A DNA stretch of 61,971 nt, filler included, from Sphacelaria rigidula (lineage: Eukaryota): NCBI GenBank assembly GCA_964200075.2. It is 7 parts of 7 records of this genome, joined end to end, with 100 filler letters (N's around TTAATTAATTAA, not from the genome) between each part and the next. Parts side by side here need not be neighbours in the genome. Positions count along the whole stretch, not along the records: positions 53,207 to 61,971 come from CAXNAA020010160.1; 6 more parts are not named here. One strand, written 5' to 3'. The notes below the pieces were generated by a model, which was not told where the DNA came from, searched no databases, and saw nothing but the letters and a program-made list of their open reading frames with translations. Position 1 is the stretch's first letter; every line of letters begins with the position of its first letter. The position numbers were made by a program, and so were the translations under genes. Positions 4,990 through 61,971 of the stretch are shown here, piece after piece.

Positions 4990-6828
4990 TCTGGCGATCC
5001 GCTTTGTCGCGTGGTGTCGTGATGAGAAGTAACTGTTCGCGGTAACAGAATTGGCAGAACGCCGGAGGCTGCAACTGTCAACTGCAGGGGGAAAAGCGAC
5101 GAAAAAAAACACTATCGTCTCACATTAACGGGAAGAGAAGGAGCTACCTGCACCTCCTAAAATGACACTTTACATTAACTGATCGTCATGACTACAGCCC
5201 CGGTGCCCGGGGTAATTCGAGCGAATGGGACTTCCTCACCAGTATGGTAGTACGGATCTGAACTACATAAAGCATCGATATGGTACAAGAGGGTAACGAA
5301 AGCAGACAACCTTGAAGGTATGATCCCAAGTCGTGATTCACCGGGCATGATACATGCAGTGTTACAGAATTCAAGGCTTGTAAAACATTCGCCAACGTTT
5401 TGGACAGTTGCTCTACACTGGCAGTGTACCCGACAACGTTGTGGGAGATCAGTTATACCAACGAAGTCAGGAAAAATCGATCTGAACTCGAAGATACCGG
5501 ACAAGGTTCCGAACTACTGGCTTGGTTTGATCCTGTTTCATTTCACTGCTAGAAATACGACTAAGATAGGGATGTATTTTTGTTCTCAACAGTGGTGCAC
5601 GCGACCGTCGAAAGAAAATTATATCGAAAGCGAATCTGGTCTGTGCACACGCGCGAAAAAGTGTACATATCTGTCGAATCGCAATACACGCGCACATGTG
5701 CTCCCATGATCTCTTCTGTCATATCGGATACGGTCGGAACCAACTGTAATGTATTGTCCTAGTCCCCACTTCAACCACAAGAGAGTGTATATGTTGGGTT
5801 ACCTGATGTTTGCTGAAGTCACTTAAACCTCGGAATTTTCGGCTCGTATCGCGTCTACATGGTGTGCATGGTAGTACATGCTTGTTGTCGGCAGGGTCAG
5901 GGTGTCATGTTAGGAAAGCGCTGGAAGTTGAGCGGGGCGTGAAACTGTCGCTGGCCACAACGAGGCTTCCAGAAAAGTGCTTTGCACATCTGTTGAATGA
6001 GGATATCACGACTGTACAAGATTGGTGCGAACATACTAGATGTCAACATGGCCATAATCGTCGTGGTGAAGATCTATTCCTTTACAGCCCTTGTGAAAAA
6101 TGGCAAACGCCCAGTGAGGGTGAGATATTCGAAACGCACCGACATCTGATCAAATCTTGGGGAAACGTCTTCTAGACTATCAGAATGTCACCATTGTCGG
6201 ACGTACCTCTTAGCCTGATGAGGTGTCAACCCGCCCGTGTCGGACACACATTCTATGGTAAACATGTACCATTCCACCTGCATCCAACACATGCGTTCTA
6301 GAATGAACACGCATTTTACGTATACCACGCAAATAAATGCTACATGAACGGGTATGCTACGTTAGTTCGACACAAACATCTTGGAGGGAACAGGCATTGT
6401 ACATATGTGCGGCACATGCGCTCTCAAGTGAGGAGATGTTTTATGTTGTGTTTTGCCCAACTCGTGGTGTACTGCGGCGGTCGTGGTTCGAGATCAACTG
6501 TGAATGTCTCGTGCAAGTTGACGAAGGAAGTGCCTAAACGGATGGAGAAGGCCGCGCTTCGTCTGCGTTTACAGTGACATCTGATTCCATGCCATATTTA
6601 TGTGACATGTTGCACTTGTCTCCTCCATAATCTTACGAGCTGGTCCAGCTGACAGTGGTTTTTGAAAGTATCCTGGCGATGCGGTTGGTTTTTCGAAGAA
6701 TTAGGCGCTGAAATTTTGACACAAAATTTCACTAGTCGGACGAGTAATTACTCCTCGAAACGAGTGCACTCGTGGATGTTTTTTGAAAACATAACGAGCA
6801 TCGTGTGCTCGAGTCATTACTTTTGTTC

Positions 6829-8769: not shown

Positions 8770-8869
8770 NNNNNNNNNNNNNNNNNNNNNNNNNNNNNNN
8801 NNNNNNNNNNNNNTTAATTAATTAANNNNNNNNNNNNNNNNNNNNNNNNNNNNNNNNNNNNNNNNNNNN
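8770..8869. other. Artificial 100-nt contig spacer
   Basis: N44-TTAATTAATTAA-N44 (stops in all six frames). Confidence 0.98.
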
Positions 8870-17638: not shown

Positions 17639-17738
17639 NNNNNNNNNNNNNNNNNNNNNNNNNNNNNNNNNNNNNNNNNNNNTTAATTAATTAANNNNNN
17701 NNNNNNNNNNNNNNNNNNNNNNNNNNNNNNNNNNNNNN
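17639..17738. other. Artificial 100-nt contig spacer
   Basis: N44-TTAATTAATTAA-N44. Confidence 0.98.
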
Positions 17739-26506: not shown

Positions 26507-26606
26507 NNNNNNNNNNNNNNNNNNNNNNNNNNNNNNNNNNNNNNNNNNNNTTAATTAATTAANNNNNNNNNNNNNNNNNNNNNNNNNNNNNNNNNNNNNN
26601 NNNNNN
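26507..26606. other. Artificial 100-nt contig spacer
   Basis: N44-TTAATTAATTAA-N44. Confidence 0.98.
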
Positions 26607-35374: not shown

Positions 35375-35474
35375 NNNNNNNNNNNNNNNNNNNNNNNNNN
35401 NNNNNNNNNNNNNNNNNNTTAATTAATTAANNNNNNNNNNNNNNNNNNNNNNNNNNNNNNNNNNNNNNNNNNNN
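35375..35474. other. Artificial 100-nt contig spacer
   Basis: N44-TTAATTAATTAA-N44. Confidence 0.98.
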
Positions 35475-39666: not shown

Positions 39667-39877
39667 TGTCATGCGTGAGAGGACCGCGTGCTTAGGCGAC
39701 CGCGCCGTAGTTCAAAACACCTCAGGATCGATGTTTTTCGAAACCAATCGGGTCAGTCCGTGGAGGTACCACGCCCCTGACCATAACCCTAACGCTAACC
39801 CTGACCCTAACCCTAACCATAGGGACGTTCAAATTCCGATGCGGTCCTCTAAGCACGCGGTCCTCTCACGCACTACA
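39667..39877 (+). mobile_element. 211-bp MITE with ~37-bp TIRs, 5-bp TSD CCACC and internal (CCCTAA)-like repeats, copy 1
   Basis: ccacc|TGTcatgcgtgagaggaccgcgtgcttag...ctaagcacgcggtcctctcacgcactACA|ccacc. Confidence 0.92.
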
Positions 39878-41861: not shown

Positions 41862-42090
41862 TGTAATGCGTGAGAGGATCGCGTGCTTAGAGGACCGCAT
41901 TGGAATTTGAACATCCCTATGGTTAGGGATAGGGTTAGGGTTAGGGTTAGGGTAGGGGTTAGTGTTGGGGTTAGGGTCAGGGGCGTGGTACCTGCAGGGA
42001 CTGACCCGATTAGTTTTCAAAAACGTCGATCCTAAGGTATTTTGAACTACGACGCGGTCCTCTAGGCACGCGGTCCCCTCACGCATTACA
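41862..42090 (-). mobile_element. 229-bp MITE, copy 3 (three extra telomere-like hexamers), TSD AGCAT/AGCAC
   Basis: agcat|TGTaatgcgtgagagg...cacgcattACA|agcac, with a longer ttaggg tract. Confidence 0.92.
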
Positions 42091-43078: not shown

Positions 43079-43289
43079 TGTAATGCGTGAGAGGATCGCG
43101 TGCTTAGAGGACCGCATGAGAATTTGAACATCATTATGGTGAGGGTTAGGGTTAGGGTCAGTGTTAGGGTTTCGGTCAGGGGCGTGGTACCTCAAGGGAT
43201 TGACCCGATTGGTGTTGAAAAACGTCGACCCTGAGGTGTTTTGAATCACGACGCGGTCGTTCAAGCACACGGTCCTCTCAAGCATTACA
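43079..43289 (-). mobile_element. 211-bp MITE, copy 4, TSD GGACG
   Basis: ggacg|TGTaatgcgtgagagg...caagcattACA|ggacg. Confidence 0.92.
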
Positions 43290-44240: not shown

Positions 44241-44340
44241 NNNNNNNNNNNNNNNNNNNNNNNNNNNNNNNNNNNNNNNNNNNNTTAATTAATTAANNNN
44301 NNNNNNNNNNNNNNNNNNNNNNNNNNNNNNNNNNNNNNNN
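44241..44340. other. Artificial 100-nt contig spacer
   Basis: N44-TTAATTAATTAA-N44. Confidence 0.98.
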
Positions 44341-44359: not shown

Positions 44360-47300
44360 ATGACTCCTGATTTGAACTTGACCACATCGGATCATGTAAT
44401 TCTCAATCAGTTGGATCGAGCTCCTTCCCCGCGATTTTCAACACGCACGGACCTACCTTCGGCCGGTTCTAATAGCAACCGCCCCAACATATTTTTGGCT
44501 ATGACCCAACAGCCAAGCTTGCCTACGGAAAGCAGCCCACAACTTTCGCTCCATCATGCCCCGATGCTGACCCCATCCACGCAACTGGACGCAGTTGTGG
44601 TTTCATCCCAAAATGTTTTGGAAGTTCCCCGACCTTTGTCACGGCGAAAGAGAAAGCCCCGTAAGCATGCCCCCCAAGGACGCGCGCGCATCATTACGTA
44701 CACCTCTTTCAAGCGGAAATCCTCGACCTCAATCTCTCCAAAATGCGACGACTTTGAGTTCGACGGCTCTATTAAGTATCCCGGAAGAAACAAAATCAAC
44801 TAATTCTGACGGCACTACTTCATCAATCGACGACTACAGCCCCGCACATTCTGGATCCCCCTTGGACGGTGATCTCTGTCAACCAAGGACGATCATTTAC
44901 GAAATCGCCAATGGTCACTCTGATCGTGCCACACCTGGAGACAATATACCGTCCACCCCCTTCTCTGGTGAGACATCTGACCCAACGGCGGATCACCTGC
45001 CGTGCGTTTTTGCTGTCAGCCCCGCTGATCCTGACCAGTTTACCTTGCCGGAACACGGTCCGGATCTTGTCGGCGGTAAAGTGTCTGTAGATCCGGCCAC
45101 TTTTACTACTCGCGTTGCGATCCATTCCGGTCCAAACGCTACCACGCCTACGAAATGCGTATCCTTCTTGGACAGCAGCAGCCCGCGAACATTTACTCGA
45201 GAATCAACATGGAAACACATGAAACAAACTGGCACTGCTACTGCAGCTTGCGAAACCACCACCAAACCTCGCGTGTGGGGCGGTTTCGGTGATTCTGCCG
45301 CACCACTGACGACACGTAAATCCGTACGTCTCAGTGTACAATTTTTCCACAAAACCACTCGATCTGCCAGCCTGGCAGTCTGGGCATACATTGTCCCCGA
45401 CAGCACAATGTATCACGCCATATTATTGGGCAGAGATAGCTGTATGCGGTTTAATAAACGCACCTACCGCACACGCGTCCACCACTAACGCCACATTCCA
45501 AGCCTTGTGGAGAATTCAACCTCGAGCACTTCGGTACTCTCCACGGCGCCCTGGCCTACCAGAAGAATCCTCAAGCAACCGGGGCTGCTTACCACCTACG
45601 ATACAACGGTAGCGTTGGTATTACACTCTCCGACGACCCCCAACTTTTAGAAGTTGCACTAGTTCGCCGAAATGGCATGCCAGCACTTATGGACCATTAT
45701 CTTGCCGAAATTGTTACCCCGTATTGGCGCACCAGCCGACACAGAACATTTTTGTGTCGGCGGGACAACAACTCCTCCCTCTTACGGGTCATGCTAACTT
45801 GGAACCCGGCGATGGTTTTAGGAATCGCCGCTGCTCCCCTGATGCACATCCCACTCGAGACGTGCGAAACAGAGCCTGCCGCGCCAAACGCCACATATAC
45901 GGCGGAGTCAGTCCATTGTCTCGATGAACCCTATTTCGACCTCGCCTCCGCGACTCCACCCCAGGTCCAGACCGTGGATCCTGCCCAGTCAAATTCCGAT
46001 CCTCCTGCTGAGGTGCTTCAACGCTCATCACCAGATTCTCGGAATAGTTTATCGCACATGTGGAACCAACTGCCGCCACACATGCGCGACATCAATTTTG
46101 ACCTTTATGGGCCCGGCTGGGAACCGGCAGTCATCCGAGAACTCAGTGATGTTCTGCTATAGTACCAAGACCGATTTTCCAGATCCAAGACGGATCTTGG
46201 GCATTGCAAAAGACTACCCTTTGAGGTTACCCTTCAACCCGGCGTCTCACCGATTTCTTCTCCGCCATACCGCACAAACCCAATCCTTACCGAAAAAGTT
46301 AACTCCATCTTGGATGCGTATTTGCGAGCGGGATTAATACAACATTCCTCCTCCCCTTGGGCCTCGCCCCTTGTGGTCGTCCCCCAAAAGGATGGAAACA
46401 TACGCATAACCGTGAATTATCAACGGTTGAAACGCGTCACTGTAGTCGGCATACTTCCGATTCCCCGCATTGATGAAGTCTTCGACTCCTTGGGCGAGGG
46501 CAAAGTATTCAGCACCTTCGACCCTGACACAGTCCCACTGACGGCTTCTTGTACCTCGTCCGGACTCTATGAGTGACTTCGGGTGCCACAAGGCGCCGCC
46601 ACTGCCCCGGGATGCTTCCAACGCTTAATGCAATGAGTCACCGTGGGCCTCGAGTACATCATCATGTACCTGGATGACGCCATCGCTTTCGATGCCTCAC
46701 CCATTGCACATATCTGCACTCTACGAGAATTTCTCTCTCGCCTACGCACGCACGATTTGAAACTGTCTCCATCCAAAGCTCGCCTTGGTGCGACTGACTT
46801 GGATTTTGGGGGGAATTCCATTTCGCCATCAGGCCTGCATCTGGATACAAACAAAGCCAAGGCCATGACTGATTTGCCGATGCCAACTAACATTTCTCAA
46901 CTTCACTTATTGTTGAGCGGGCTATCCCACTACCGCAAAATTTTGCCGCACTTACCTAAACGGATTCGCCCCCTTACTGAGTTACTCAAGGAAGGAGCTG
47001 TGGTTTCCTTCACAACCGAAATGGAGAATATGACCCGCGAAATACTCAAGACGCTTACCGAGAAGCCGGTACTCTGCTTTCCTGATTGGGAGGCAGTACA
47101 AGATGGCTCCCGCCTTTTCCAACCCCACACTGACGCCAGCACAAACGGATTTGGAGGAGTTTTGAATCAATCTTAGCTTGATGTCTCCGTCCGACCCATC
47201 CTCTATATCAGCCGCGCTATCGTGCCCAACGAGCCCGCTAGAACTGGAAGGCGGAGTAATCACTTGGACCATCAAGCGCCTTCGACAATACCTGTTTCAC

Positions 47301-50270
47301 GTGCCCTTTGAGATCTACACGGATCACGGAGCACTCTAACAACTCGCCAAGGTTGGCGACCACAACCCGCGTGTACAACGATGGTTGGAGTTTCGAACAG
47401 CATAGCAGTATACCATTAAGTACCGTCCAGGAAAAACCAACGGAAACGCTGATCTTCTTTCTCGCCTACCTCTGTCGCCTACGGCCGCAGATTGCAGCTT
47501 GGCTTGCCGTTGAACGGAACCCGACAAACCTGGAATTCACGCGATTAGACGATTTTCAACGCCCGTTTACGCCCTCGACCTCCAGTGCCCGGAAACTGGT
47601 ATGCATATGGGAGGACCTCGCCTTCTACCATATGACGCCGTCTTCGATGGGTTAAAGCCCCCCACTTTCGATTTGTCGATTTCCGCACTTTCGTTACTCG
47701 CGCGAAACTCTTCGCGAAGACACCTCCAGTCACCCACCTTGTCTCCGACAACATGCGCTCCCGGTCTGCCGCCCGCACAACACCGTGTGCCCCGCCGCCA
47801 CGGATAACACCTGCAACCCCTACGAGCTACCCAGCACAACTTCAACGGACCAACACGCAACGCTCCGCGACAACTTCTGCACCGTGCACCACGCGCCGCG
47901 GACAATCTTCGCCGCGCACTAATACAGCCCCGCCGCCCACCACGGCGCCGCCAACATTTACCGCTCCCGAGCACGGCACTGACGACTTAGCTCCGGCCTC
48001 CGGGACAGATATTGACGTCGGCATTCCTGCCCCGTCGCCTATTCCCCCGCCGCCTGCCCCGCCATGTTTGGTTGGCTCGCCAGCGGAAGGTTAACTACGC
48101 GAGTTTCTCGCCAGCTACTCCCACCGTGATTGGGCTCGCGAACAAAACGCAGAACCGATATGTCGCGCAGCCATCTGGTACTTACAACTCGACTGTCCAG
48201 TCCCTTTTCCATCCACACTTCTGGCCCCGGTTGGCACACTGCCACCACCAGTTATTTCTGACGTATACGAGCTCGTGCGTAAAGGCACCCTTTTTACTAC
48301 GGATGAAGATGTGCAACAACTCGTGCGTCGGCCCACGTTTTTGACAGGCGCAATTGCCGCCTCAACCACGGGACGCACCGCATGACTACTCAATGACGAA
48401 CCAACGCGCATATATGTGCCATTATTAATGCGCCCCTGGGTCATGAAAGGCTGCCACACAGACTTGTCATGTCACCTTGGCGTCATCCGCACTCTCGCGC
48501 TCTTCGAACGCTTCTACTGGTGGGTTCGCATGGAAATTTCAACCCGCTTCTGGATTCGGCGATGCTTCCAATGCCAAGCTCGAAAATATTCACGACAGAC
48601 AGTACGCTGGCCCGTCATCTCTATGAAACTCCCCAACGAGCCCAGCCACTTTGTTGTGTCCTTTGATTACTTTGGCGTTCTACCGACCACAGGTCGCGGC
48701 AACACCTACATCTTACTCTTCACTGACCGCTTCAGCCGCCACGCGTCCATGTACGCGGTAACCGCCGCGGATTTCACTGCCGGCGGAACGGCCGACATAC
48801 TGGTTCACGATTACATCAAGCATTACGGTTGCCCAAAGCGACTACTTTCAGACAATGGTCAGTAATTTTGCTCAGATTTCTCTGATGAGATTTACAAGCT
48901 CCTGGGCATCCGCAAAATTGCCACGAGCGCCTACCACCCGAACGGTAATGGTGGTACCGAAAGAGTGAATCACACCATGGCCCAGATGCTCTCTATGGTT
49001 GTCAATGACCGCCAAAATGACTGGGACTTACATCTCTCGCACATCATGTTGTCCTACAACAACTCGGTTGATGCCGCCACAGGCCTTTCTCCGAACGAAC
49101 TTCATCTTGGACGTTACCCTCGGCTGCCTATCACCGTGTTTGAGCGACACACGTTCGACGGCCACCAAGGATTGAATCAGGATCAGATATCCTACCACGA
49201 GCTAGCGCACGCGCGACAACGCAAAGCGTTTACCCTCGTGCGCGAACAACACGCTACCAACGCCTCGCGCCTAGAGATATCTAACACTGCTCTCTACAAC
49301 CTCATGCACAAATGCCCTGACTGGAAAGTTGGTAATTGGGTTTGGATCTACAATAGTTTGTCGACCATCCGCCAAGGCACCTGCAAGGCAGCCAACGAAA
49401 CAATTTTGAAGACAAAACTGTGCCTCAATTGGACAGGACCATTCAAGATCCTGACAGTCGGACCTCGTCATCATCACCGGATGAAAAACCCGTTGGTGAC
49501 AAACTGCTCTATCTCAACTTGCCTCGTGACTTCCAGGGCAAGAACACCAAACCCCACGTCTCCGTGCATAGATGTAAACCCTGCACGGACCCGCATGATA
49601 CAAGTGACATGCCCAAGTACCTGCCTGCCGGACTCACACAGTATGTTCTCAATAGCTACTCGACCAAGTCCCCGTCCTACCACGTTACAACCGACGACGT
49701 GACGGAACAGCCCCTTCGATTGAAAGTGTCCTCCAGCTCCGACTACCAGATAACCCGTGGCTGAGGAGGCAAAATCGCTGTCATGTATAAGACACACTGG
49801 CACGGTTCTTGGAGAGCGTCTTGGGAACGCGAATCCGACCTGCAATCGCACCGCCGTGCAATCCTCCTTTACTGGACGCGATCCCAACATCAGCATCTTG
49901 CTCACAACGAGAAATATCGCAACATGCGCCGTGGCGCAGCAGCCCGCAAACTTCACCGCAATCAGGGACTACGCTTCGTCGCAGATGGTTACAAACTTGT
50001 ACCCACCAAGACTTGTAAGACGAAGTTCTTCGCGAACCAGCGACTCACGCCCAAGGGCAGCTACCTTTGGTTCAAAGGCAGCGACAACCTCTGGTAGTTG
50101 GGTCAGACCCACTCCGATAACCTGGTTTCCGCCGACACATACATCGCGCGCTTCATCGATGACCCTGAACCCATACAGCTCAAGCTTCGGCCAGCACTTT
50201 ACACCACCAGCCCATCTGCGCCACGCGGATCCTGGTGCCTCTAGCGCCTCAAGTCGAAAGGACTTTGCCG
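44360..50270 (+). mobile_element. Degenerate Ty3/Gypsy LTR retrotransposon pol (PR-RT-RNaseH-IN-chromo-like), with many stops and frameshifts
   Basis: Protease: FLDSSS...ILLGRD. RT: SPWASPLVVV, PIPRIDE, YLDD. RNase H: HTDAS..GFGGVL. Integrase: H...HLG, CFQCQ, DRFS, SDNG, NGGTERVN, WTGPF. Chromo-like: YKTHWHG...SWERESDL. The domain order RT-RH-IN is Ty3/Gypsy. Confidence 0.95.
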
Positions 50271-53106: not shown

Positions 53107-53206
53107 NNNNNNNNNNNNNNNNNNNNNNNNNNNNNNNNNNNNNNNNNNNNTTAATTAATTAANNNNNNNNNNNNNNNNNNNNNNNNNNNNNNNNNNNNNN
53201 NNNNNN
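53107..53206. other. Artificial 100-nt contig spacer
   Basis: N44-TTAATTAATTAA-N44. Confidence 0.98.
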
Positions 53207-55013
53207 CAGGCAGAAGAAATCGTGAATTTGGTGATTTTGAGTCGTGATGATTTGTCCTAACCGTGGATTTTTCGCCAACTTCGGTTCTTACTTTTCCATT
53301 CTCTTTTTTTGTTACGACCTAGTCTGCTATGTCGTTCTGTTCGACTTTTTTTTTCTGTTCCTTTTTTTCTTCGGAGCGTGTTTCAGTTTCGTTTTTCTTG
53401 GGTACGTCTATCCTGAGACCACGGCTGGACCCCTGGGGGGTCAGTTGAAGTGCGACAATCAATCAATCAATCAAATCGCTCCGCAACAACGCACAACATG
53501 GAACTTCTGTCGCCGTGAGCTGCATCTTGCTAGTGCAGCATTGCAGACCCACACTACACCGCAAGCGAGCGCTAAACGACGTATGTGGTAGATCAATACG
53601 CGGGGCAATGACCTGGGGCAGCGTTCAGTGCTCTGCTGATATCGTGATAAAATTCAAAATGGGCTCCATTCTCTTTTGCTTTTCCACCTGTTACCCTGGA
53701 AAATTGAATGCGAAAGTCGAAGTTGGGAACAACCGGTAGAACACGTGAACTGCGGTGCTCACAGCGCTGGCTGTTCGGCTGCGCATGATCTGCGCAAACT
53801 CGTTGAGGGCCTATGCACATGGCTCATGTTCTGCGACGTGATGTTAGTAGTACAGTATAGGCAGGGCGGCGCAGTCACTGAAGACAGTACAGAACGTGTG
53901 CACAGTAAAGTCAGTACAGCCACGAATCCACGAGTAAAACCGTGTTCACCCACCCCCCCCCCCTCCAACGCCCCCCCCACCCCCTTCTCCACCCCNNNNN
54001 NNNNNACAAGAACAACAGAGTTGCACGACAACACCCCCCACACCCCCCAAACCCGTAAAAACCACGCTTCCCCCCCCCCCCCCCCCCCCCCCCAACTGGT
54101 TTTGAACGCACATGCCACACGGCGAGACAACCGTCAGTGACGCTCATCTTGGAGGAATGGTAGAAACAGCACATTGCACCCGCGCCAATATTTCGGCCAG
54201 CATTACAGTGCGTCGAACGGAATCAGTACAACGTTTCATACGGGAAAACGAGGACATCTAGAAGTCTTTCCAGAATCTGTGCAAGGGGTATTTTTTCCCC
54301 TTTTTTCTCCGGATTGCAACACAGGTGTGTTGTGAACATCTGTCCAACTTGCTTCGTCTCCGATGTATCATGTCTACTATTCAGCCGCGCTCCGGCAGGG
54401 TAGCGGTGCAACTGACACCGTAAAGAACGCGGGTTTGATTCCCGTCGGATGCGTCTGGGGTTTTTCTTAATTCTGATTTCCCTCCTTGAAAGCGTGAGTG
54501 CATGGATAGCGGAAAGAGTTGACTGAGTTTGCTTGACGTCAGTCGACACGGTGCGGGAAAGCTAATCCAATGACCAAAATGCGAAGCGTGTTCCGGGGAA
54601 GAGATGAATGAGTGGGTGAATCCTTTGAGGCCAAGGGCTCGTCCCGAGGAGGGGTGTACTCATGATCATGCATGCCATAGTCATCAGACTATTGACCTCG
54701 CATCCCTACAAAGCCAGGACGGAGCACGCCGGGTTTTCGCCGGACCAGGCTCCCGAGGAGGGGGAGGGGGGGGGAGGGGTGAGAGTATGATGAAAAATAA
54801 CTGTGAGCCACATCTCTACCAAAAAATATTTACCATACAGTTCGAGTGTATGCTAGAGCGATATCCTTGCAGGAACCCCTTGGTCCGAAGCATCACCGTT
54901 TCGCCGTATGGTTCAACAAACAAGATCGGTAGTCTAAAACTTGTTTTCACGATAAGCCAAATCTGACCTGGACTGATCTTCACGACTGTGTCTCGCTGTC
55001 ATGTCTTTTCCAG

Positions 55014-55139
55014 GGCAAGTACGCTGAGGCTGAGTCACTCTACGAGCGGTGCCAGGCGATCGAGGAGAAGATTCTTGGCCCGGAGCACCCAAGCTTTGCC
55101 GAAGCGATGGAAAGCCGCGCGGTGTTGTTGAGAGCTCAG
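55014..55139 (+). CDS. TPR array exon 1 (42-aa TPR, probably part of an NB-ARC-TPR-type gene)
   Basis: cag|...|gtga, 126 nt, phase 0. GKYAEAESLYERCQAIEEKILGPEHPSFAEAMESRAVLLRAQ. Confidence 0.92.
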
Positions 55140-55242
55140 GTGAGAGCAAATGGAATATCCTCGTTGTCCGGTGACGGCGTTTAGAAGACATCGTGCGGTG
55201 TTGATTTTGTCCGCTGGTCCTGTTGGCCAACGTTATAGCTGA

Positions 55243-55365
55243 GGTCAGTGCGGCGAAGCCAGCCTGTTGTACCTTTGAGCGGTCGAGATCGGCCATAGTA
55301 CCGTCGGCCCTGTACACATGGTGCTCGCCGGCTGCACACCTAGGCGGGGCGGCGGCGCGAGCTTT
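55243..55365 (+). pseudogene. Intronic decayed TPR pseudo-exon (counterparts in the other introns of the array)
   Basis: Translates GQCGEASLLYL*AVEIGHSTVGPVHMVLA, in register with GKYAEAESLYERCQAIEEKILGPEHPSFA. A frameshift follows and splice sites are lacking. Confidence 0.75.
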
Positions 55366-55431
55366 TCACCACCGTTGTGGGCCCGACGTCAACTGTTATA
55401 CGCTGCTTTTGCGTCGTATACTACATTTCAG

Positions 55432-55557
55432 GGCAAGTACGCCGAGGCCAAGCCACTCTTCGAGCGGTGCCAGGCAATACAGGAGAAAGTTCTTGGCCCG
55501 AATCATCCTGATTTGGCCGTGACGATGGGCAGCCGTGCGCGGTTGTTGCAATCTCAG
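55432..55557 (+). CDS. TPR array exon 2
   Basis: cag|...|gtga, 126 nt. GKYAEAKPLFERCQAIQEKVLGPNHPDLAVTMGSRARLLQSQ. Confidence 0.92.
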
Positions 55558-55614
55558 GTGAGAGCCTACATGCCCTCCTCGTAGTCGTGTGTCGACTCGT
55601 GAACGACATCGTGT

Positions 55615-57880
55615 TGGGGCTGTGGACTGGCAGCTCTGGGCAGGAAAGTTTATACTGGCCGCGTCATGTTTTTCGATTTCACCCGGGAAGCGCCAGTGAT
55701 ACAGGCAAAGAAAAGCACCAATGAAATATAGAATTGGTCAAGTTGAAGCGAATGATAAAAACCTACTCTCAATCAGCGCTCTACTCTCAACATTACGGAA
55801 ACATTGTTGAATGCAGACAGTTGTACAAATTTTGACCCCTCACATTGAGGAGCTGAGATCGACTCTAATGGGAGCCGTTCAGGTTTTATTCCAAAATGTT
55901 TGAACGAGTGGTCACAAAGACACTTGATATGGAACAAAATCGCCAAGATTTAGACCCCCAAAAGTTTGAACGGACCAAGAAAATACTAAATTCCGGCCAA
56001 GCGCTCAGAATCAGGAGACGATTCAAAGCGTTTGAGGGCCTGTTGAAAAATTGGCACAAAAAGTATAATGACACTTGTAATATTTTTTTGTACTACATCA
56101 CACACCGGTGGCTCCTTCATGTGCTGCACCTTTCACTGCACAGTCGTGAGTTTAGACCTTGCCAAAACTGTGTGGTCTCTGCTGGGATTACCAGAGCAGC
56201 TGTACTGCTATTACATTCCGAACAACTGCGGTCGGCAGACGGTGCTGTCTTGTCGAAGTTGAAAATACTCTACAGCATTTGTTTGTTGGATATCGTGTCC
56301 TTCGCAAAGAACAAGGTCCTTGATGCGCAGACCCAGCGTTACTGTCCTGTAGCTGACAGGTAGTGCGGTGCCCTGCAAATACGGTTTGATCTGCGCTGAG
56401 GATTGCATGAAGTGCCGTACTGTTGTTGTGTCGCGGTCGGTACACAAGTCTAGACACTGCGAAAGCGCCACCATCATGGCGTATTGGATGCGTTGGGCCG
56501 TTTATAAAACCAATCAATGACGCAATAATTCATGCCCACGTTACTTATTGTTATGCTGCAGTTGTTGTTCTGACTGTAGTGCGTTTAAATCCTTCGAATA
56601 CGGTTTGATCTTCGCTGGAGATTGTCCGAGATGCTGAACTGCCGCTGGTCCGGTCTGTACAGATGGGTGGGAACGAAACCCTGTTCGCATGAAGTTGAAA
56701 ACGTTACGTTATGGGTGTACAGCTGCCATGTCTTCTACAGGTGCTGTTGTACAAGTGCACAACGCCTAGGTCACGCCAATTTCATCATCTATGTGCAACT
56801 CCAGCGTCATGCCGTAATAGTGTTTTTTTTTTGTCCCAGTTCAGAATCGTGGCAGAAAACAAACTCGTTTGAAATGTAAAACAAACAAACGTTTGAACGG
56901 CTCCCATGAGAGTTGGCCTAAGAGGCTTCAAAAACATTAAAATCCCATTCAAAGCAATGAGCGACTCGACAATCATTCATCTGTAGCATGCAGCCGCAGA
57001 GACTCTTCTGGAGGAGTGGAGGGTGGGAACATGGAAGCCAAGACTCGCAGCACGTGGGGATAAAAGCGCAAAGTTATTGACGTCCGGGCAGACAAACACG
57101 CATGCCGTTGAATAGCAAGCCATGGTGTATTTTGTATTTTGTGGTCGTGGGTTACCGTTTTTTATTTGTGTCGGCTGTCGTGCAATGAAACGACAATAAG
57201 TGTGCCCGCTCTATCACTTCAAGGTGTAGTGAGCATGTGCTGCGTCATGTTCAACGTTCATCATGCACTTAGCGTTTGAGATTCGGCAGTTCCGCATCAA
57301 GCGCCCCGCCGTATATAAGTAACTCACAACTCCTTTTTCTTTCTACAGCTTAGTTTTCTTTCTTCATTTTCGACCTACACGCTACAGCCGAAAAAGCGGA
57401 AAACTGCAGAACCACGAGGGACCAACGAAGCAACCGGGACAGAAACACCTGAAGTAGTCAAGTAGTGATCGGCATAGGGCAAACCCGTTCTGAATGTGCT
57501 ACGGAACTACAACAGGATGTCAGACCTATACTGTACAAGTCGACCGAACCGCGGAAGACGTAGTATAAAGCTGTGCACCGCTGCTTCACGCGTCATCGAC
57601 GCAAGCAATTTCTGTCAACGCCTTCGAAGCGCCCTCCGTCTTAACTGATACCCCCACATTCCTCTGCAATTGTAAAGTGCAGGCCTCAGTTGTACAGTCA
57701 CATCGTATATAACTGTTTCATAAGCTTTGTCATAAACTCACTATACTAAAATTAATATACATATTGCCGGTAACGGTAAACCTCGAATAAACTGGATAAA
57801 CTGGCACCCTCGTCGCCAGTTCCAGTTTAACTCCAGTTCTGGTCCAATCGACAGTATAAACGGTCCGGTTCACAGCCCTA
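55615..57880. mobile_element. Non-autonomous hAT-like element in TPR intron 2
   Basis: TIRs tggggctgtggactgg / ccggttcacagcccta and an 8-bp TSD CATCGTGT/CATCCTGT. The paralogous intron 6 lacks the insertion. Confidence 0.75.
55857..56918. mobile_element. Nested PIF/Harbinger-like non-autonomous element
   Basis: TIRs gatcgactctaatgggagccgttca / tgaacggctcccatgagagttggcc and a 3-bp TSD TGA/TAA. The empty site gaggagcTAAgaggctt is visible at ~12478-12494. Confidence 0.7.
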
Positions 57881-58121
57881 CATCCTGTGGTGTTGGTGAT
57901 GCTCGCTTGTCCTCTGGATCAACGTTGCCTGAGAGGGTGCGGCTAGGTCAACCCGTTATACCTCTGTGCTGTCGACATCGAATACACTGCTCCTGATCCT
58001 GTGCACACCGCAATCGCCGGCTGCACACCTGGGCGGGGCGGTGGCGCGAGCGTCTCCCCACCGTTGTAGGTCCGACGTTGGCCCTCATTGGCTTGCCTCT
58101 GCGTCGTGTACTACATGTCAG

Positions 58122-58247
58122 GGCAAGTACAACGAGGCTGAGCGACTCTACGAGCGATGCCAAGCGATCGAGGAGAAGGCTCTCGGCCCGGAGCACCCAA
58201 GCTTCGCCACAACGCTTCACAACCGTGCGGGTTTGTTTCAAGATCAG
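58122..58247 (+). CDS. TPR array exon 3
   Basis: cag|...|gtga, 126 nt. GKYNEAERLYERCQAIEEKALGPEHPSFATTLHNRAGLFQDQ. Confidence 0.92.
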
Positions 58248-58569
58248 GTGAGAGCCGATGGAGCTTTGTAGTGGTAGTGTCTCGACGTGTGAATGAATTT
58301 ATGTTGTGTTGATGTTGGTCACTGATCCTGTCGGCCGACGTAGACTGAGAGGATGCGGCAATGCCAGACCGTCGTACCTCTGCGCCATCGGTATCGGGCA
58401 TATTACCCTCGGCCCTTCAGATGTAGCGCTCATCGGCTGCACACCAGGGGGGGGGCGGTAGCGCAGCGTCTCCCCGAAGTTGTAGGTCCGAAGTTGACTG
58501 TTATGGGTTGCTTCTACTTCGTTGCCTGCGCTTTGACTGTTGGCCTACGGCACACTGTGCTATATTCAG

Positions 58570-58695
58570 GGCAAGTACGACGAGGCCGAGACACTCTACG
58601 AGCGGTGCCAAGTGATCAGGGAGAAGATTCTCGGCCCGGATCATCTAGTATTCGCCGCCACGCTTCACCGCCGTGGGACGTTGTTGCAAGCCCGG
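58570..58695 (+). CDS. TPR array exon 4
   Basis: cag|...|gtga, 126 nt. GKYDEAETLYERCQVIREKILGPDHLVFAATLHRRGTLLQAR. Confidence 0.9.
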
Positions 58696-58981
58696 GTGAG
58701 AGCCGGTATAACATTGTCGTAGTCGTTTGCTGATGCGTGGACGAGATTGCGAGGGGTTGACGTTGTTCGCTGGCCCTGGGGGGGCAACGTTGACTGACAG
58801 GATTACTGCTGCGAGGCCAATTCGGTGTACGTCTGAGTCATGGTTACCGGGTACAGCACAGACCTTGTACACACATCGCTCGCCGGCCTCACACGTGGGC
58901 GGGGGAGTGGCGCGAGCGTCTTGTCGCCGTTGCAGGCGCGACGTTAACTATTATAGACTTCTTCTGCGTCGCGTACTACAT

Positions 58982-60705
58982 TGCACGGTCCGCACGAATT
59001 ATACCGTAATTCGGCTGATATTCAGCATTCGTACGAATCAACGATACGATTCGTACACAAGTTGTGATTCGTACGTGATTTCGGTTCGCGATTCGCGCAA
59101 CATCACTTGGATTGTACACATCCCCAGTTCGTGATTTGTGCGGTACACTGACGAATGTTCATGTTCCATACGTTCCATTCGTATCGGATAAATCGTAGGT
59201 ACATGTTCTCCACCTTCCGCTCTCGTAAGAGCGAATCAAGCGTACATGTTTCGCGCCTTCTGTTCGCATAACACAATCATGAGAGCACGTTGTTTCCCAT
59301 CCGGTATTTCATGGGGCGCGACTCTCCGGTGGCATGGCCGTTTTACAGGTGGGGTATGCAAGTAGGACCGTACAGGTGGCCAACCCCTCGAACTCTAAAT
59401 CCGCAATAACCCAAAATTCAAATATTGTACTGAAATGTTACACATGAAATATAGTACAGCACACGCGTTTGCGTGCCCACAGCGGTTCTTCTCGCCAGGC
59501 ATTTTCCCGAGCTATGCTATTAGCAGCATTTTTTATTTCATTTGTAGTTTCAGGATGTGTTGCGTGGTACAGTTGAGCTGAATGTACTGTATCTAATACC
59601 GCAGACACTTTCTGAAAAAACATCAGCACGGGTCGTCCTCGTATGTTCGCGGGACGTTTTGGGAAACCTCCGGCGGCGTACACGGCAGTCCGTAGAGAGT
59701 GCGGTATAAGATAGCACACCATGCATCTGCGCGCCTAGAGCGATTCGTCTAGCTTATTTTTTTCCCGGGCAATTGCTGTCGACGACCCTCCTGCGGTTTC
59801 ATGTTTTGTTCTGCGGTATAGTTGGCCTGGCTATATAAAACAGTACAAAGACATCTGCAGACAGCATCAGCACTGCAAGAGTCGTTCCTGGATGTTCGCG
59901 TGAGTTTTCGGAAACACTCCGGCAGCACTGCAATCAGTGGGCAGTACAGTACAGTACAGCACAGCATAGTGTTGTGCAATCTGTACACCGGACAACAGGC
60001 AACAGTAGTACGAAGCCTTCACAATAATCCGGCATGATACATTCCGTATTTCTCCCCTTGATTATGCAGCATCAATCACGTCATTCATGTACATGTTTTC
60101 CGCCTTGCTCTCGTTCAGCATGAACCATGGGTGCATGTTCCCCACCTTTCATTAACACGAGGTGAATCAAGCGTACATACTTTCAATTTTCATGCACCCA
60201 GCACAAGTCATAAGTGCATGTTCCTTATCTTCCATTCATACGAGGTGAATCAAGCGTACATGTTTTCCAATTTCCATTCGTACAGCATGAGTCATACGCA
60301 CATGTTCTCCGCCTTCCATCCATACGAGGTGAATCAAGCGTACATGTTTTCCAATTTCCATTCGTACAGCATGAGTCATACGCACATCTTCTCCGCCTTC
60401 CATCATACGAGGTGAATCAAGCGTACATGTTTTCCAATTTCCATTCATGGAGCATGAGCCATACGTACATGTTCCCCAATCAATTATTCATACAGAAAGT
60501 GTGATTGGTACATATTTTCCACCTCTTGATTCGTGTGACACTACTGGGGATGTACACATTCCCAGTTCGTGATTCGTGCAATATGGCCTTGAACGTACAA
60601 CTTTACTGTCCGTGATTGATACCGGATGACTCTTTGATACATGTTGTGCATTCAACATTCATGAGGAGTCAATCCGCATGAGCTCTGATTATTCCGAACC
60701 GTGCA
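58982..60705. mobile_element. 1.7-kb non-autonomous TIR element inserted just upstream of the exon-5 splice acceptor
   Basis: ACAT|tgcacggtccgca...tccgaaccgtgca|ACATgcag. It interrupts the conserved gcgtcg.gtactacat..cag acceptor motif and carries many gattcgt/acgaatc subterminal motifs. Confidence 0.75.
60150..60480. repeat. ~84-bp tandem repeat (~3-4 copies) inside the 1.7-kb element
   Basis: acgaggtgaatcaagcgtacatgttttccaatttccattcgtacagcatgagtcatacgcacat... is repeated. Confidence 0.9.
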
Positions 60706-60713
60706 ACATGCAG

Positions 60714-60839
60714 GGCAAGTACGCCGAGGCCGAGTCATACTACGAGCGGTCCCACGCGATAAACGAGAAGCTTCTTGGTACGGAGCACCCAGCGGTGGCG
60801 GCAACGCTGGGAAGCCGTGCGGAGTTGTTTCGGGCTCAG
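60714..60839 (+). CDS. TPR array exon 5
   Basis: cag|...|gtga, 126 nt. GKYAEAESYYERSHAINEKLLGTEHPAVAATLGSRAELFRAQ. Confidence 0.88.
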
Positions 60840-61102
60840 GTGAGAGGCGGTGGAACTTCCTCGTACTGCCAGATGTCGGCGTGCGACGGACGTGGTGCGG
60901 CGTTGATATCGTTCGCTGGTCCTGTGGGCCAATGTTGAGTTTGGGTCAGTGCGGCGAAGCCCGCCCGTTGTGCCTCTGGTCGAGATCGGGCATAGTATCC
61001 TCGACCCTGAACCCATGGCGCTCAACGACTGCACACCTGGGCGGGGTGGCGGTGCGAGCTTAACTGTTGTGCGCTGCTTCTGCGTCGTGTACTACATTGC
61101 AG

Positions 61103-61228
61103 GGTAAGTACGCTGAGGCTGCGGCACTGTACGAGCGGTGCCAGGCGATGCAGGAGAAGCTCCTCGGCCCGGATCATCCTGAGTTGGCCGTAGTGATGGG
61201 GAGCCATGCGTGGTTGTTGCAAGCTCAG
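61103..61228 (+). CDS. TPR array exon 6
   Basis: cag|...|gtaa, 126 nt. GKYAEAAALYERCQAMQEKLLGPDHPELAVVMGSHAWLLQAQ. Confidence 0.92.
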
Positions 61229-61497
61229 GTAAGAACCGATGTGCCTTCCTCGTAGTCGTGTGTCGACTTGTGAACAACACATTGTGATGTTGGTGTTGCT
61301 CGCTGGCCCCGAGGGCCAACGTTGACTGAAAGGCTGCGGCTAGGTCAACCCGTGATACCTCTGTGCTGTCGATATCGAATACACTACTCTTGACCCTGTG
61401 CACACCGCAATCGCCGGCTGCACACCTGGGCGGGGCGGTGGTTGTTGGTCCGACGTTGACCCTTATGCGCTGATTTGCGACGTGTACTACATGTCAG

Positions 61498-61623
61498 GGC
61501 AAGTACAACGAGGCCGAGCGACTCTACGAGCGATGCCAAGCGATCGAGGAGAAGGCTCTCGGCCCGGAGCACCCAAGCTTCGCCACAACGCTTCACGACC
61601 GTGCGAGTTTGTGTCATGTTCAG
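61498..61623 (+). CDS. TPR array exon 7
   Basis: cag|...|gtga, 126 nt. GKYNEAERLYERCQAIEEKALGPEHPSFATTLHDRASLCHVQ. Confidence 0.92.
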
Positions 61624-61945
61624 GTGAGAGCCGATGGAGCTTTGTAGTGGTAGTGTCTCGACGTGTGAATGAATTTATGTTGTGTTGATGTTGGTCACTG
61701 ATCCTGTCGGCCGACGCAGACTGAGAGGATGCGGCAATGCCAGACCGTCGTACCTCTGCGCCATCGGTATCGGGCATATTACCCTCGGCCCTTCAGATGT
61801 AGCGCTCATCGGCTGCACACCAGGGGGGGGGCGGTAGCGCAGCATCTCCCCGAAGTTGTAGGTCCGAAGTTGACTGTTATGGGTTGCTTCTACTTCGTTG
61901 CCTGCGCTTTGACTGTTGGCCTACGGCACACTGTGCTATATTCAG

Positions 61946-61971
61946 GGCAAGTACGACGAGGCCGAGACACT
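61946..61971 (+). CDS. TPR array exon 8 (truncated by the window end)
   Basis: ttcag|ggc aag tac gac gag gcc gag aca (GKYDEAET), identical to the start of exon 4. Confidence 0.85.

Follow-up and report, generated by a model that had tools for sequence, protein, structure and literature searches.

Divergence at predicted ligand-contact codons between two nearly identical exon-intron units of a Sphacelaria rigidula TPR array

Why do two exons of one tetratricopeptide repeat (TPR) array differ at five amino acids within a few codons while the introns that follow them are almost identical? The array in question lies in the final ~7 kb of a 61,971-nt stretch of Sphacelaria rigidula DNA (GenBank assembly GCA_964200075.2; hereafter, the window), in which parts of seven records are joined end to end with 100 filler letters between them and whose last part (53207-61971) comes from CAXNAA020010160.1. 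A scan of both strands for AG, a 126-nt open frame with the TPR signature and GT yields seven complete exons, all on the + strand, and no 126-nt TPR exon on the - strand of the window. With AG and GT at their borders, these exons encode GKYxEA...LGPxHP...A..L..RA.L...Q, and the array consists of brown-alga-type TPR exons, in which each 126-nt, phase-0 exon carries one 42-residue TPR of the kinesin light chain type.

Differences between exons 3 and 7 and a step in identity

An earlier reading made from the sequence alone (the sequence-only reading) had singled out the third and seventh exons, and the scan places them in the same order, with the third starting at 58122 and the seventh at 61498. 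Its counts were also reproduced: in local alignment, exon 3 (58122-58247) and exon 7 (61498-61623) differ at exactly six nucleotides, one of which is synonymous (codon 6; 58139/61515, T/C) and five of which are non-synonymous in codons 34-41. From exon 3 to exon 7 the latter are N34D (58221, A/G), G37S (58230, G/A), F39C (58237, T/G), Q40H (58241, A/T) and D41V (58243, A/T). They make up a divergent patch of five differences in 23 nt (58221-58243 in exon 3 and 61597-61619 in exon 7) in the C-terminal half of helix A, with the tail HNRAGLFQDQ in exon 3 and HDRASLCHVQ in exon 7. All five codon differences are single-nucleotide steps, as they are between the positional homologues exons 1 and 5 and exons 2 and 6, and the invariant codons 35, 36, 38 and 42 and the splice donor lie among and around the variable codons of the patch. 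The introns that follow, intron 3 (58248-58569) and intron 7 (61624-61945), are both 322 bp long and differ at only two nucleotides (58341, T/C; 58468, G/A), again as the sequence-only reading had stated.

The differences are clustered beyond chance. Under random placement, at least five of the eight differences in the 491-bp tract of high identity fall inside some 23-bp span with P = 0.00069, uncorrected, and the six differences in the 126 nt of the exon alone are as clustered with P = 0.016. With codons weighted by their variability across the family, a span of 8 codons, wherever it lies, takes in all five amino-acid changes with P = 0.00115.

The setting of the two exons is older than their similarity suggests. 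Identity is 0.80 between introns 1 and 5, 0.83 between introns 2 and 6 and 0.99 between introns 3 and 7, while all other intron pairs range from 0.61 to 0.70; units 1-4 and 5-8 are therefore collinear duplicates, in which exons 1 (55014-55139) and 2 (55432-55557) correspond to exons 5 (60714-60839) and 6 (61103-61228), and exon 4 (58570-58695) to exon 8, of which the end of the window leaves the first 26 nt (61946-61971), the same as the first 26 nt of exon 4. Nucleotide identity over codons 1-33 is 0.68-0.83 for every exon pair except exons 3 and 7, for which it is 0.99. When the two blocks are aligned, identity up to 58093 runs 0.79, 0.74, 0.80, 0.85, 0.83, 0.89 and 0.84, and that of the last 500 bp is 0.98. 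The jump from 74-89% to ~98-99% is abrupt and lies at ~58096-58107 in the first block and 61472-61483 in the second. The 3' part of intron 2 (57886-58107) is the older-divergence homologue of part of intron 6 (61283-61483; 84-89% identity, with a 19-bp indel), and from there on a tract of ~99% identity (58108-58595; counterpart 61484-61971) runs to the end of the window.

A two-state hidden Markov model with 17% divergence in its old state and 0.6% in its new state, run at three switch rates, assigns 55011-58107 to the old state, 58108-58217 to the new, 58218-58246 to the old and 58247-58595 to the new. The posterior of 58218-58246 for the old state is 0.86-0.998 across the three rates. At 5/23, the divergence of the patch equals the baseline of the array and is not unusual for it: the corresponding tails show 5/27 differences between exons 1 and 5 and 3/27 between exons 2 and 6. 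The near-identity of introns 3 and 7 is best explained by homologous recombination that followed an older duplication, as either gene conversion or unequal crossing-over, and the step in identity would be the junction of that event. Intron identity is therefore no measure of the time since the exons separated. With the intron as clock, the proportion of non-synonymous sites that differ in the patch (pN, 0.263) exceeds the intron divergence (2/322 = 0.006) ~40-fold, as calculated by hand, but this excess is an artifact of the clock assumption unless the changes are younger than the homogenization.

The predicted binding surface and its variability in the family

The sequence-only reading also held that this segment, as helix A of kinesin-light-chain-type TPRs, lines the ligand-binding groove. 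That structural premise is sound: P0030, a homologue of these exons, matches the TPRs of human KLC1 at E = 2e-45 without gaps within the repeat. The groove of KLC1 is lined by its inner helices A and has a polar clamp of N343/N344, N301/N302, N386 and K340 (PMC3314626), and in the KLC1-JIP1 complex a tyrosine pocket of V305, K309, Y313, N344, L347, L348 and N351 is accompanied by a salt bridge of R266 (PMC6214655). On a 42-residue period, V305, K309, Y313, N344, L347, L348, N351 and R266 correspond to unit positions 37, 41, 3', 34, 37, 38, 41 and 40, respectively, and unit positions 33-34 align with the helix-A "NN" of KLC1. Unit position 34 is the equivalent of N344, N302 and N386, position 37 of V305 and L347, position 40 of R266, and position 41 of K309 and N351. 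Thus four of the five changed positions (34, 37, 40 and 41) are homologous to cargo-contact residues of KLC1 and, on this alignment, are predicted contacts in the S. rigidula repeats; the fifth, position 39 (C349 of KLC1), is absent from the contacts as listed in the part of the source drawn on here (PMC6214655). With eight contact positions per 42, five codons drawn at random would include at least four contacts with P = 2436/850668 = 0.003, whereas five codons placed within 34-41 reach an equal contact count with P = 16/56 = 0.29 (both by hand). The information therefore resides in the location of the cluster and not in the choice of codons within it. By chance, a patch placed anywhere in the 491-bp tract would coincide with this 27-nt segment ~5% of the time (27/491, by hand).

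Variability at these positions was assessed on 148 repeats in exact 42-residue register (147 unique) from 15 brown-algal or brown-alga-like proteins. Among the 147 unique repeats, positions 37, 40 and 41 have entropies of 3.0-3.3 bits, among the highest of all positions and shared with positions 17, 27, 31 and 4, while conservation prevails at positions 34 (N in 110/147) and 39 (L in 122/147). Over 20 non-sister pairs of window exons, which are not independent of one another, the ratio of non-synonymous to synonymous divergence (dN/dS) is 1.42 for codons 34-41 vs. 0.49 for codons 1-33. The sequence-only reading would have been contradicted by a family-wide ratio of 1 or less at these codons without a donor tract, and on this small sample the value is nominally higher. 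From these results, the part of that reading which invoked diversifying selection on the patch is plausible, with dN/dS differing as it does between the two segments, but the extraordinary rate that it implied does not stand, since units 1-2 and 5-6 are only 74-89% identical and the premise of an intron clock fails.

Explanations for the divergent patch

Based on the step in identity and the location of the patch, we tentatively prefer to read the patch as a peak of divergence at a predicted binding surface inside a homogenized unit, although we give this reading slightly less than an even chance. A four-unit block (exons 1-4 with their introns) would have been duplicated long ago to give exons 5-8, after which units 1 and 5 and units 2 and 6 would have diverged to 74-89% identity. 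Later recombination, by gene conversion or unequal crossing-over with its 5' junction at ~58096-58107/61472-61483, would have replaced unit 7, together with the beginning of unit 8 or more of it, by a copy of units 3 and 4, or the reverse, and a 23-bp island over codons 34-41, the groove-facing half of helix A, would have retained baseline divergence within the homogenized tract. Differences at these putative specificity residues may have been protected from homogenization, or favored after it, by selection for two binding surfaces. The island would then be older than the recombination event or shielded from it, with selection on the binding surface a plausible cause.

Such a pattern is expected from published work: in duplicates under gene conversion, selected exon sites are predicted to show high divergence and the flanking introns low divergence, as in opsin exon 5 (PMC3924837). 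The divergence peak of Teshima and Innan (2008), as presented by Fawcett and Innan (2011; PMC3924837), resembles the situation here in that divergence is low in the introns and high at a few codons of one exon, which are functionally important in red/green opsin exon 5 and only predicted to be so here. Homogenized flanks with an abrupt boundary to older divergence are likewise found at units 3 and 7, where identity passes from 0.74-0.89 to 0.98-0.99. The S. rigidula duplicates differ from that system in being repeat units within one gene, ongoing conversion is deduced here from one step in identity rather than from a comparison of paralogues with orthologues, and the role of selection is putative.

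Several results weigh against this reading. The clustering P values above concern one pair picked post hoc from a very large scan, and no correction was made for that choice. Unequal crossing-over that created exon 7 de novo would leave no older tail to be preserved. Two of the patch changes strike positions that are otherwise conserved (N34 and L/F39), and none of the ~5 synonymous sites in the patch differs; the count of five non-synonymous and no synonymous differences was considered as evidence of selection and discarded as uninformative, as it arises with P ~0.31 under random placement. The family seldom or never shows the residues that exon 7 has at the five sites (D 7, S 4, C 0, H 1 and V 0 of 147). 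On a five-site profile only 1/147 family repeats scores as low as exon 7, whereas the six remaining exons of the window fall at ranks 18-58 of 147. When single-nucleotide non-synonymous changes are simulated at random in these codons of exon 3, the median score is -26.2 and 6.9% of the sets are as low as the observed -32.8, so that an unfiltered cluster of mutations fits the residues of exon 7 as well as selection does. Four to five of the five changes probably occurred on the exon 7 lineage, whereas an old island is expected to show changes on both lineages. Finally, the array may be a gene fragment: tblastn with seven NB-ARC+TPR homologues detected no NB-ARC domain in the 62-kb window (589 high-scoring segment pairs, all of them TPR, at 54819-61792 on the + strand), and a gap and a degenerate retroelement lie upstream.

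At the five sites, the states of exon 3 occur in the family as N 110, G 60, Q 26, F 5 and D 5 of 147, and its tail, of a type common in the family, is similar to the HNRAGLLQ.Q tails of other species. P0047, an open reading frame (ORF) of an ENA contig, matches unit 3 across the exon and both intron flanks and has the tail HNRAGL. The exon 7 tail shares with exon 3 two states that are otherwise unique in the window (A at the second position of codon 34 and T at the third position of codon 37) and looks like the exon 3 tail with five unfiltered point changes. The likeness of its residues to random changes argues against a donor or a remnant from ordinary functional exons, and it favors neither selection for a novel specificity nor a cluster of mutations over the other.

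The strongest rival is recent positive selection, in which exon 7 arose or was homogenized recently and five new substitutions in helix A were then fixed for a new specificity; we consider it unlikely, but it deserves more weight than the other rivals. It accommodates the single-nucleotide steps that separate all five codons from those of exon 3, the concentration of changes on exon 7 that follows from a family-typical exon 3 tail (shared by many relatives and by P0047), the four of five changes at positions homologous to ligand contacts, the patch devoid of synonymous change and the rare residues, which are compatible with a novel specificity. This explanation is, however, the one to which the ~40-fold excess would apply, and that excess is far above the mean omega of 3.49 reported for selected TPR sites of Ectocarpus (PMC3341825). 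The other hypervariable positions (4, 8, 17, 20, 27, 30 and 31) are moreover all unchanged, and the residues of exon 7 are no better than random.

Without any selection, the five changes could instead be one untemplated cluster of mutations left by repair synthesis during the homogenizing recombination event, which we regard as quite improbable. Mutagenic gene conversion is known from work in yeast. The tightness of the cluster (five changes in 23 bp) within a recombination tract, residues that are indistinguishable from random single-nucleotide changes and the occurrence of all or most changes in one copy are what such an event would leave, but it would also have had to fall exactly on the groove-facing half of helix A, which happens ~5% of the time by chance (27/491). 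Its spectrum is mixed, with no recognizable signature, and five changes are many for a single event.

A somewhat smaller probability still is assigned to an artifact or a mis-joined allele, in which the last 500 bp would be a product of assembly or polishing, or the other haplotype of unit 3 placed behind intron 6. The second copy indeed occupies the very end of the window, which follows the step in identity by ~500 bp; a 10-N scaffold gap is present in the window, and near-identical repeats are typical sites of contig breaks. Substitution errors, however, rarely cluster as five in 23 bp with an open frame and intact splice sites, and both copies are preceded by distinct, collinear introns of older divergence; if the copies were allelic, the cluster would remain real and in need of explanation. 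The sequence-only reading had likewise named consensus or sequencing errors as a result that would undo it.

That reading had further raised a focused micro-conversion, for which a donor was sought. No donor exists in the window, where each 24-mer of the patch matches only itself with up to three mismatches on both strands, and the exact exon 7 24-mer has 0 matches in public metagenome contigs. Among 57 proteins, the words DRAS, LCHV and CHVQ of the exon 7 tail occur in none, and ASLC and SLCH occur in one bacterial-type JGI protein only. Templated micro-conversion, in which a TPR exon or pseudo-exon from another place in the genome would have donated a short tract to exon 7, in line with the "reservoir" suggested by Zambounis et al., is very unlikely in our estimation: exon shuffling and a possible reservoir of inactivated exons are reported for the family (PMC3341825), the invariant codons 35, 36, 38 and 42 and the splice donor could anchor short tracts and the rare residues would suit a donor evolving without constraint, but neither a donor in the window, a nearby k-mer template, a metagenome-contig match nor such a tail in the 57 proteins was found, and with single steps from exon 3 and shared unique states any donor must have been closely related to exon 3 itself.

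Two other sources of the patch were tried and rejected. A template switch from a nearby direct or inverted repeat finds within the unit only 6-7-mers that cover one or two variant sites, no more than a control with the exon 3 states, and across the window three 10-mers covering three sites, against one 9-mer for the control, are unconvincing. Base-specific hypermutation, such as adenine mutagenesis of the diversity-generating-retroelement type or AID-like deamination of C, does not agree with the spectrum (A>G, G>A, T>G, A>T and A>T); the changed bases of exon 3 (A, G, T, A and A) are neither all adenines nor sites of C/G transitions. We also think it very doubtful that the exon 7 patch was written by a dedicated diversification process, whether templated conversion from relaxed pseudo-exons or mutagenesis targeted to the groove-facing half of helix A; if it was, the cassette-type diversification of receptors that Zambounis et al. 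proposed for brown algae would here show its first trace at the level of sequence. From the window by itself, the preferred divergence peak and its rivals cannot be told apart.

The gene family, comparable systems and the surrounding sequence

The array likely belongs to the brown-algal NB-ARC-TPR gene family, and the 5' part of the gene may lie beyond the window. With exon 3 as query, 53 proteins among 57 candidates match at E<=0.001. The top matches carry NB-ARC (PF00931) and TPR families, their named sources are Scytosiphon promiscuus, S. rigidula, Ectocarpus spp. and Pylaiella littoralis, and their identity to the exon is 76-86%, with 86% as the maximum. The ORF of exon 3 scores above the cut-offs of Pfam families TPR_12 (35.5 bits; cut-off, 30.1) and TPR_10 (30.8 bits; cut-off, 27.5), while exon 7 alone scores 30.7 bits for TPR_12 (cut-off, 30.1) and 26.0 bits for TPR_10, below the cut-off of 27.5.

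In Ectocarpus, the NB-ARC-TPR genes are candidate immune receptors with one TPR per 126-nt exon and inactivated exons on the coding strand (PMC3341825), and their repeats follow the motif GKYxEA[E/D]PL[Y/F]x8Gx[D/E]xxx[V/I]AxxLxNxAxLLxxQ (Zambounis et al., 2012; PMC3341825). Exon shuffling and site-wise positive selection, with a mean omega of 3.49 at selected TPR sites, were described for that family, in which the inactivated exons might act as a reservoir (PMC3341825); somatic recombination in these genes has been proposed but not observed, according to Teng et al. (2024; PMC11378527). The S. rigidula array resembles these genes in its 126-nt/42-residue exons, its GKYxEA..L[Y/F]...G..H...A..L.N.A.LL..Q pattern, its repeated intron-exon units and its inactivated exon on the coding strand (PMC3341825), and its best homologues are brown-algal NB-ARC+TPR proteins; it differs in that no NB-ARC domain was found in the window. 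The exon translations match the Ectocarpus motif with some substitutions, and N34 is replaced by S, R or D in 6/7 exons.

Fungal NB-ARC-TPR receptors of the NOD-like receptor (NLR) class offer a second comparison. Their highly internally conserved (HIC) repeats are near-identical TPRs of the kinesin light chain type with few variable positions on the concave face, modelled on KLC2 (3EDT) (Dyrka et al., 2014; PMC4986451), for which concerted evolution combined with diversifying selection has been proposed (PMC4986451; PMC13449251), and a 2026 paper describes "weak HIC" in brown-algal receptors (PMC13449251). Exons 3 and 7 parallel them as near-identical TPRs of the same type that differ mainly at a few positions, here predicted to face the groove. 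The fungal repeats, however, are intronless and >85% identical throughout the array, whereas here near-identity is confined to a single pair of units, the rest reach 68-83% at the nucleotide level and the homogenized unit takes in the intron. An assignment to arrays of the fungal HIC type (>85% identity over >=100 residues) was considered and rejected, with exon pairs at 0.68-0.83 except for exons 3 and 7 at 0.99. As for KLC1/2, the 42-residue period and the NN/A/L pattern of helix A are shared, but function and partners are unrelated, so that the KLC contacts are a positional guide only.

Since 2012, the NB-ARC-TPR and ROCO genes of brown algae have been put forward as a candidate for receptor diversification outside the vertebrates, on the basis of exon shuffling and of codon models applied to entire families. 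For the NB-ARC-TPR family, its architecture, the shuffling of its exons and diversifying selection are already published. The portions of the Ectocarpus study drawn on here describe no island of divergence in a homogenized exon-intron unit (PMC3341825), and none was found for NB-ARC-TPR genes in the literature searched, to which Teng et al. (2023) and the supplements of Zambounis et al. did not belong. The pair formed by exons 3 and 7 provides a small, located test case in which homogenization of a unit stands beside divergence at predicted ligand-contact residues, and its exact coordinates could allow preserved, selected and generated divergence to be told apart in populations and single individuals. 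As it stands, it adds one case to a pattern already described in other duplicated genes and in fungal NLR repeats.

The introns of the array are all mutually homologous, with a mean column identity of 71%, and the array was therefore built from exon-plus-intron units. A G-rich element (...GCTGCACACCTGGGCGGGGCGG...GTTGTAGGTCCGACGTTGAC...) is conserved near the 3' part of all of them, for example at 57970-58094, 58386-58510, 61367-61491 and 61762-61886. In translation this element also precedes the TPR exon in P0047, from an unrelated ENA contig, so intron sequence is conserved beyond the array locus. Introns 2 and 4 each hold an insertion of ~2 kb (55608-57885 and about 58986-60700). In intron 4 the conserved acceptor region closes with CAC instead of CAG at ~58985, the insertion stands where an exon would be expected, and a 42/84-bp tandem repeat lies within it (60134-60478). 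Three conserved positions of exon 4 are occupied by unusual residues, namely L26 (giving HL for HP; P in 131/147 family repeats), G36 (A in 139/147) and R42 (Q in 124/147), and the exon 4 unit may be in decay.

Ahead of exon 1 the window contains a pseudo-exon, a 10-N gap and a frame-broken retroelement. The pseudo-exon (54843-54930, + strand) is degenerate, truncated and TPR-like, without the GKY start; its translation ends in ...YARAISLQEPLGPKHHRFAVWFNKQDR followed by a stop, and the tblastn matches of homologues extend to 54819-54846. The 10-N run (53996-54005) has poly-C flanks and looks like a scaffold gap. It is separate from six pairs of 44-N runs with 12 bases between the members of each pair, which recur every ~8868 bp (8770-8869, 17639-17738, 26507-26606, 35375-35474, 44241-44340 and 53107-53206) and look like an artifact of masking or data handling rather than assembly gaps. 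The retroelement region (44500-49700, + strand) is of the long-terminal-repeat type, with Integrase_H2C2 at E = 4e-12 and weak matches to RVT_1, RT_RNaseH_2/RNase H and rve; three of its five ORF pieces searched had no Pfam match.

Elsewhere in the window, two interstitial telomere-like arrays, (CCCTAA)x7 at 39775-39818 and (GGTTAG)x10 at 41921-41982, stand in opposite orientation ~2.1 kb apart, and a related TTACGGTCAGGGTTAGGG repeat is found at 43134-43181. A 907-residue open frame on the - strand (2401-5124) encodes 16 EsV-1-7 cysteine-rich repeats (PF19114, E = 1e-243) and also shows up as a tandem array (period, 114 bp; 16.4 copies; 78% matches). The EsV-1-7 family is reported to be strongly amplified in brown algae (preprint 10.1101/2024.02.19.579948), and this ORF too is consistent with a brown alga.

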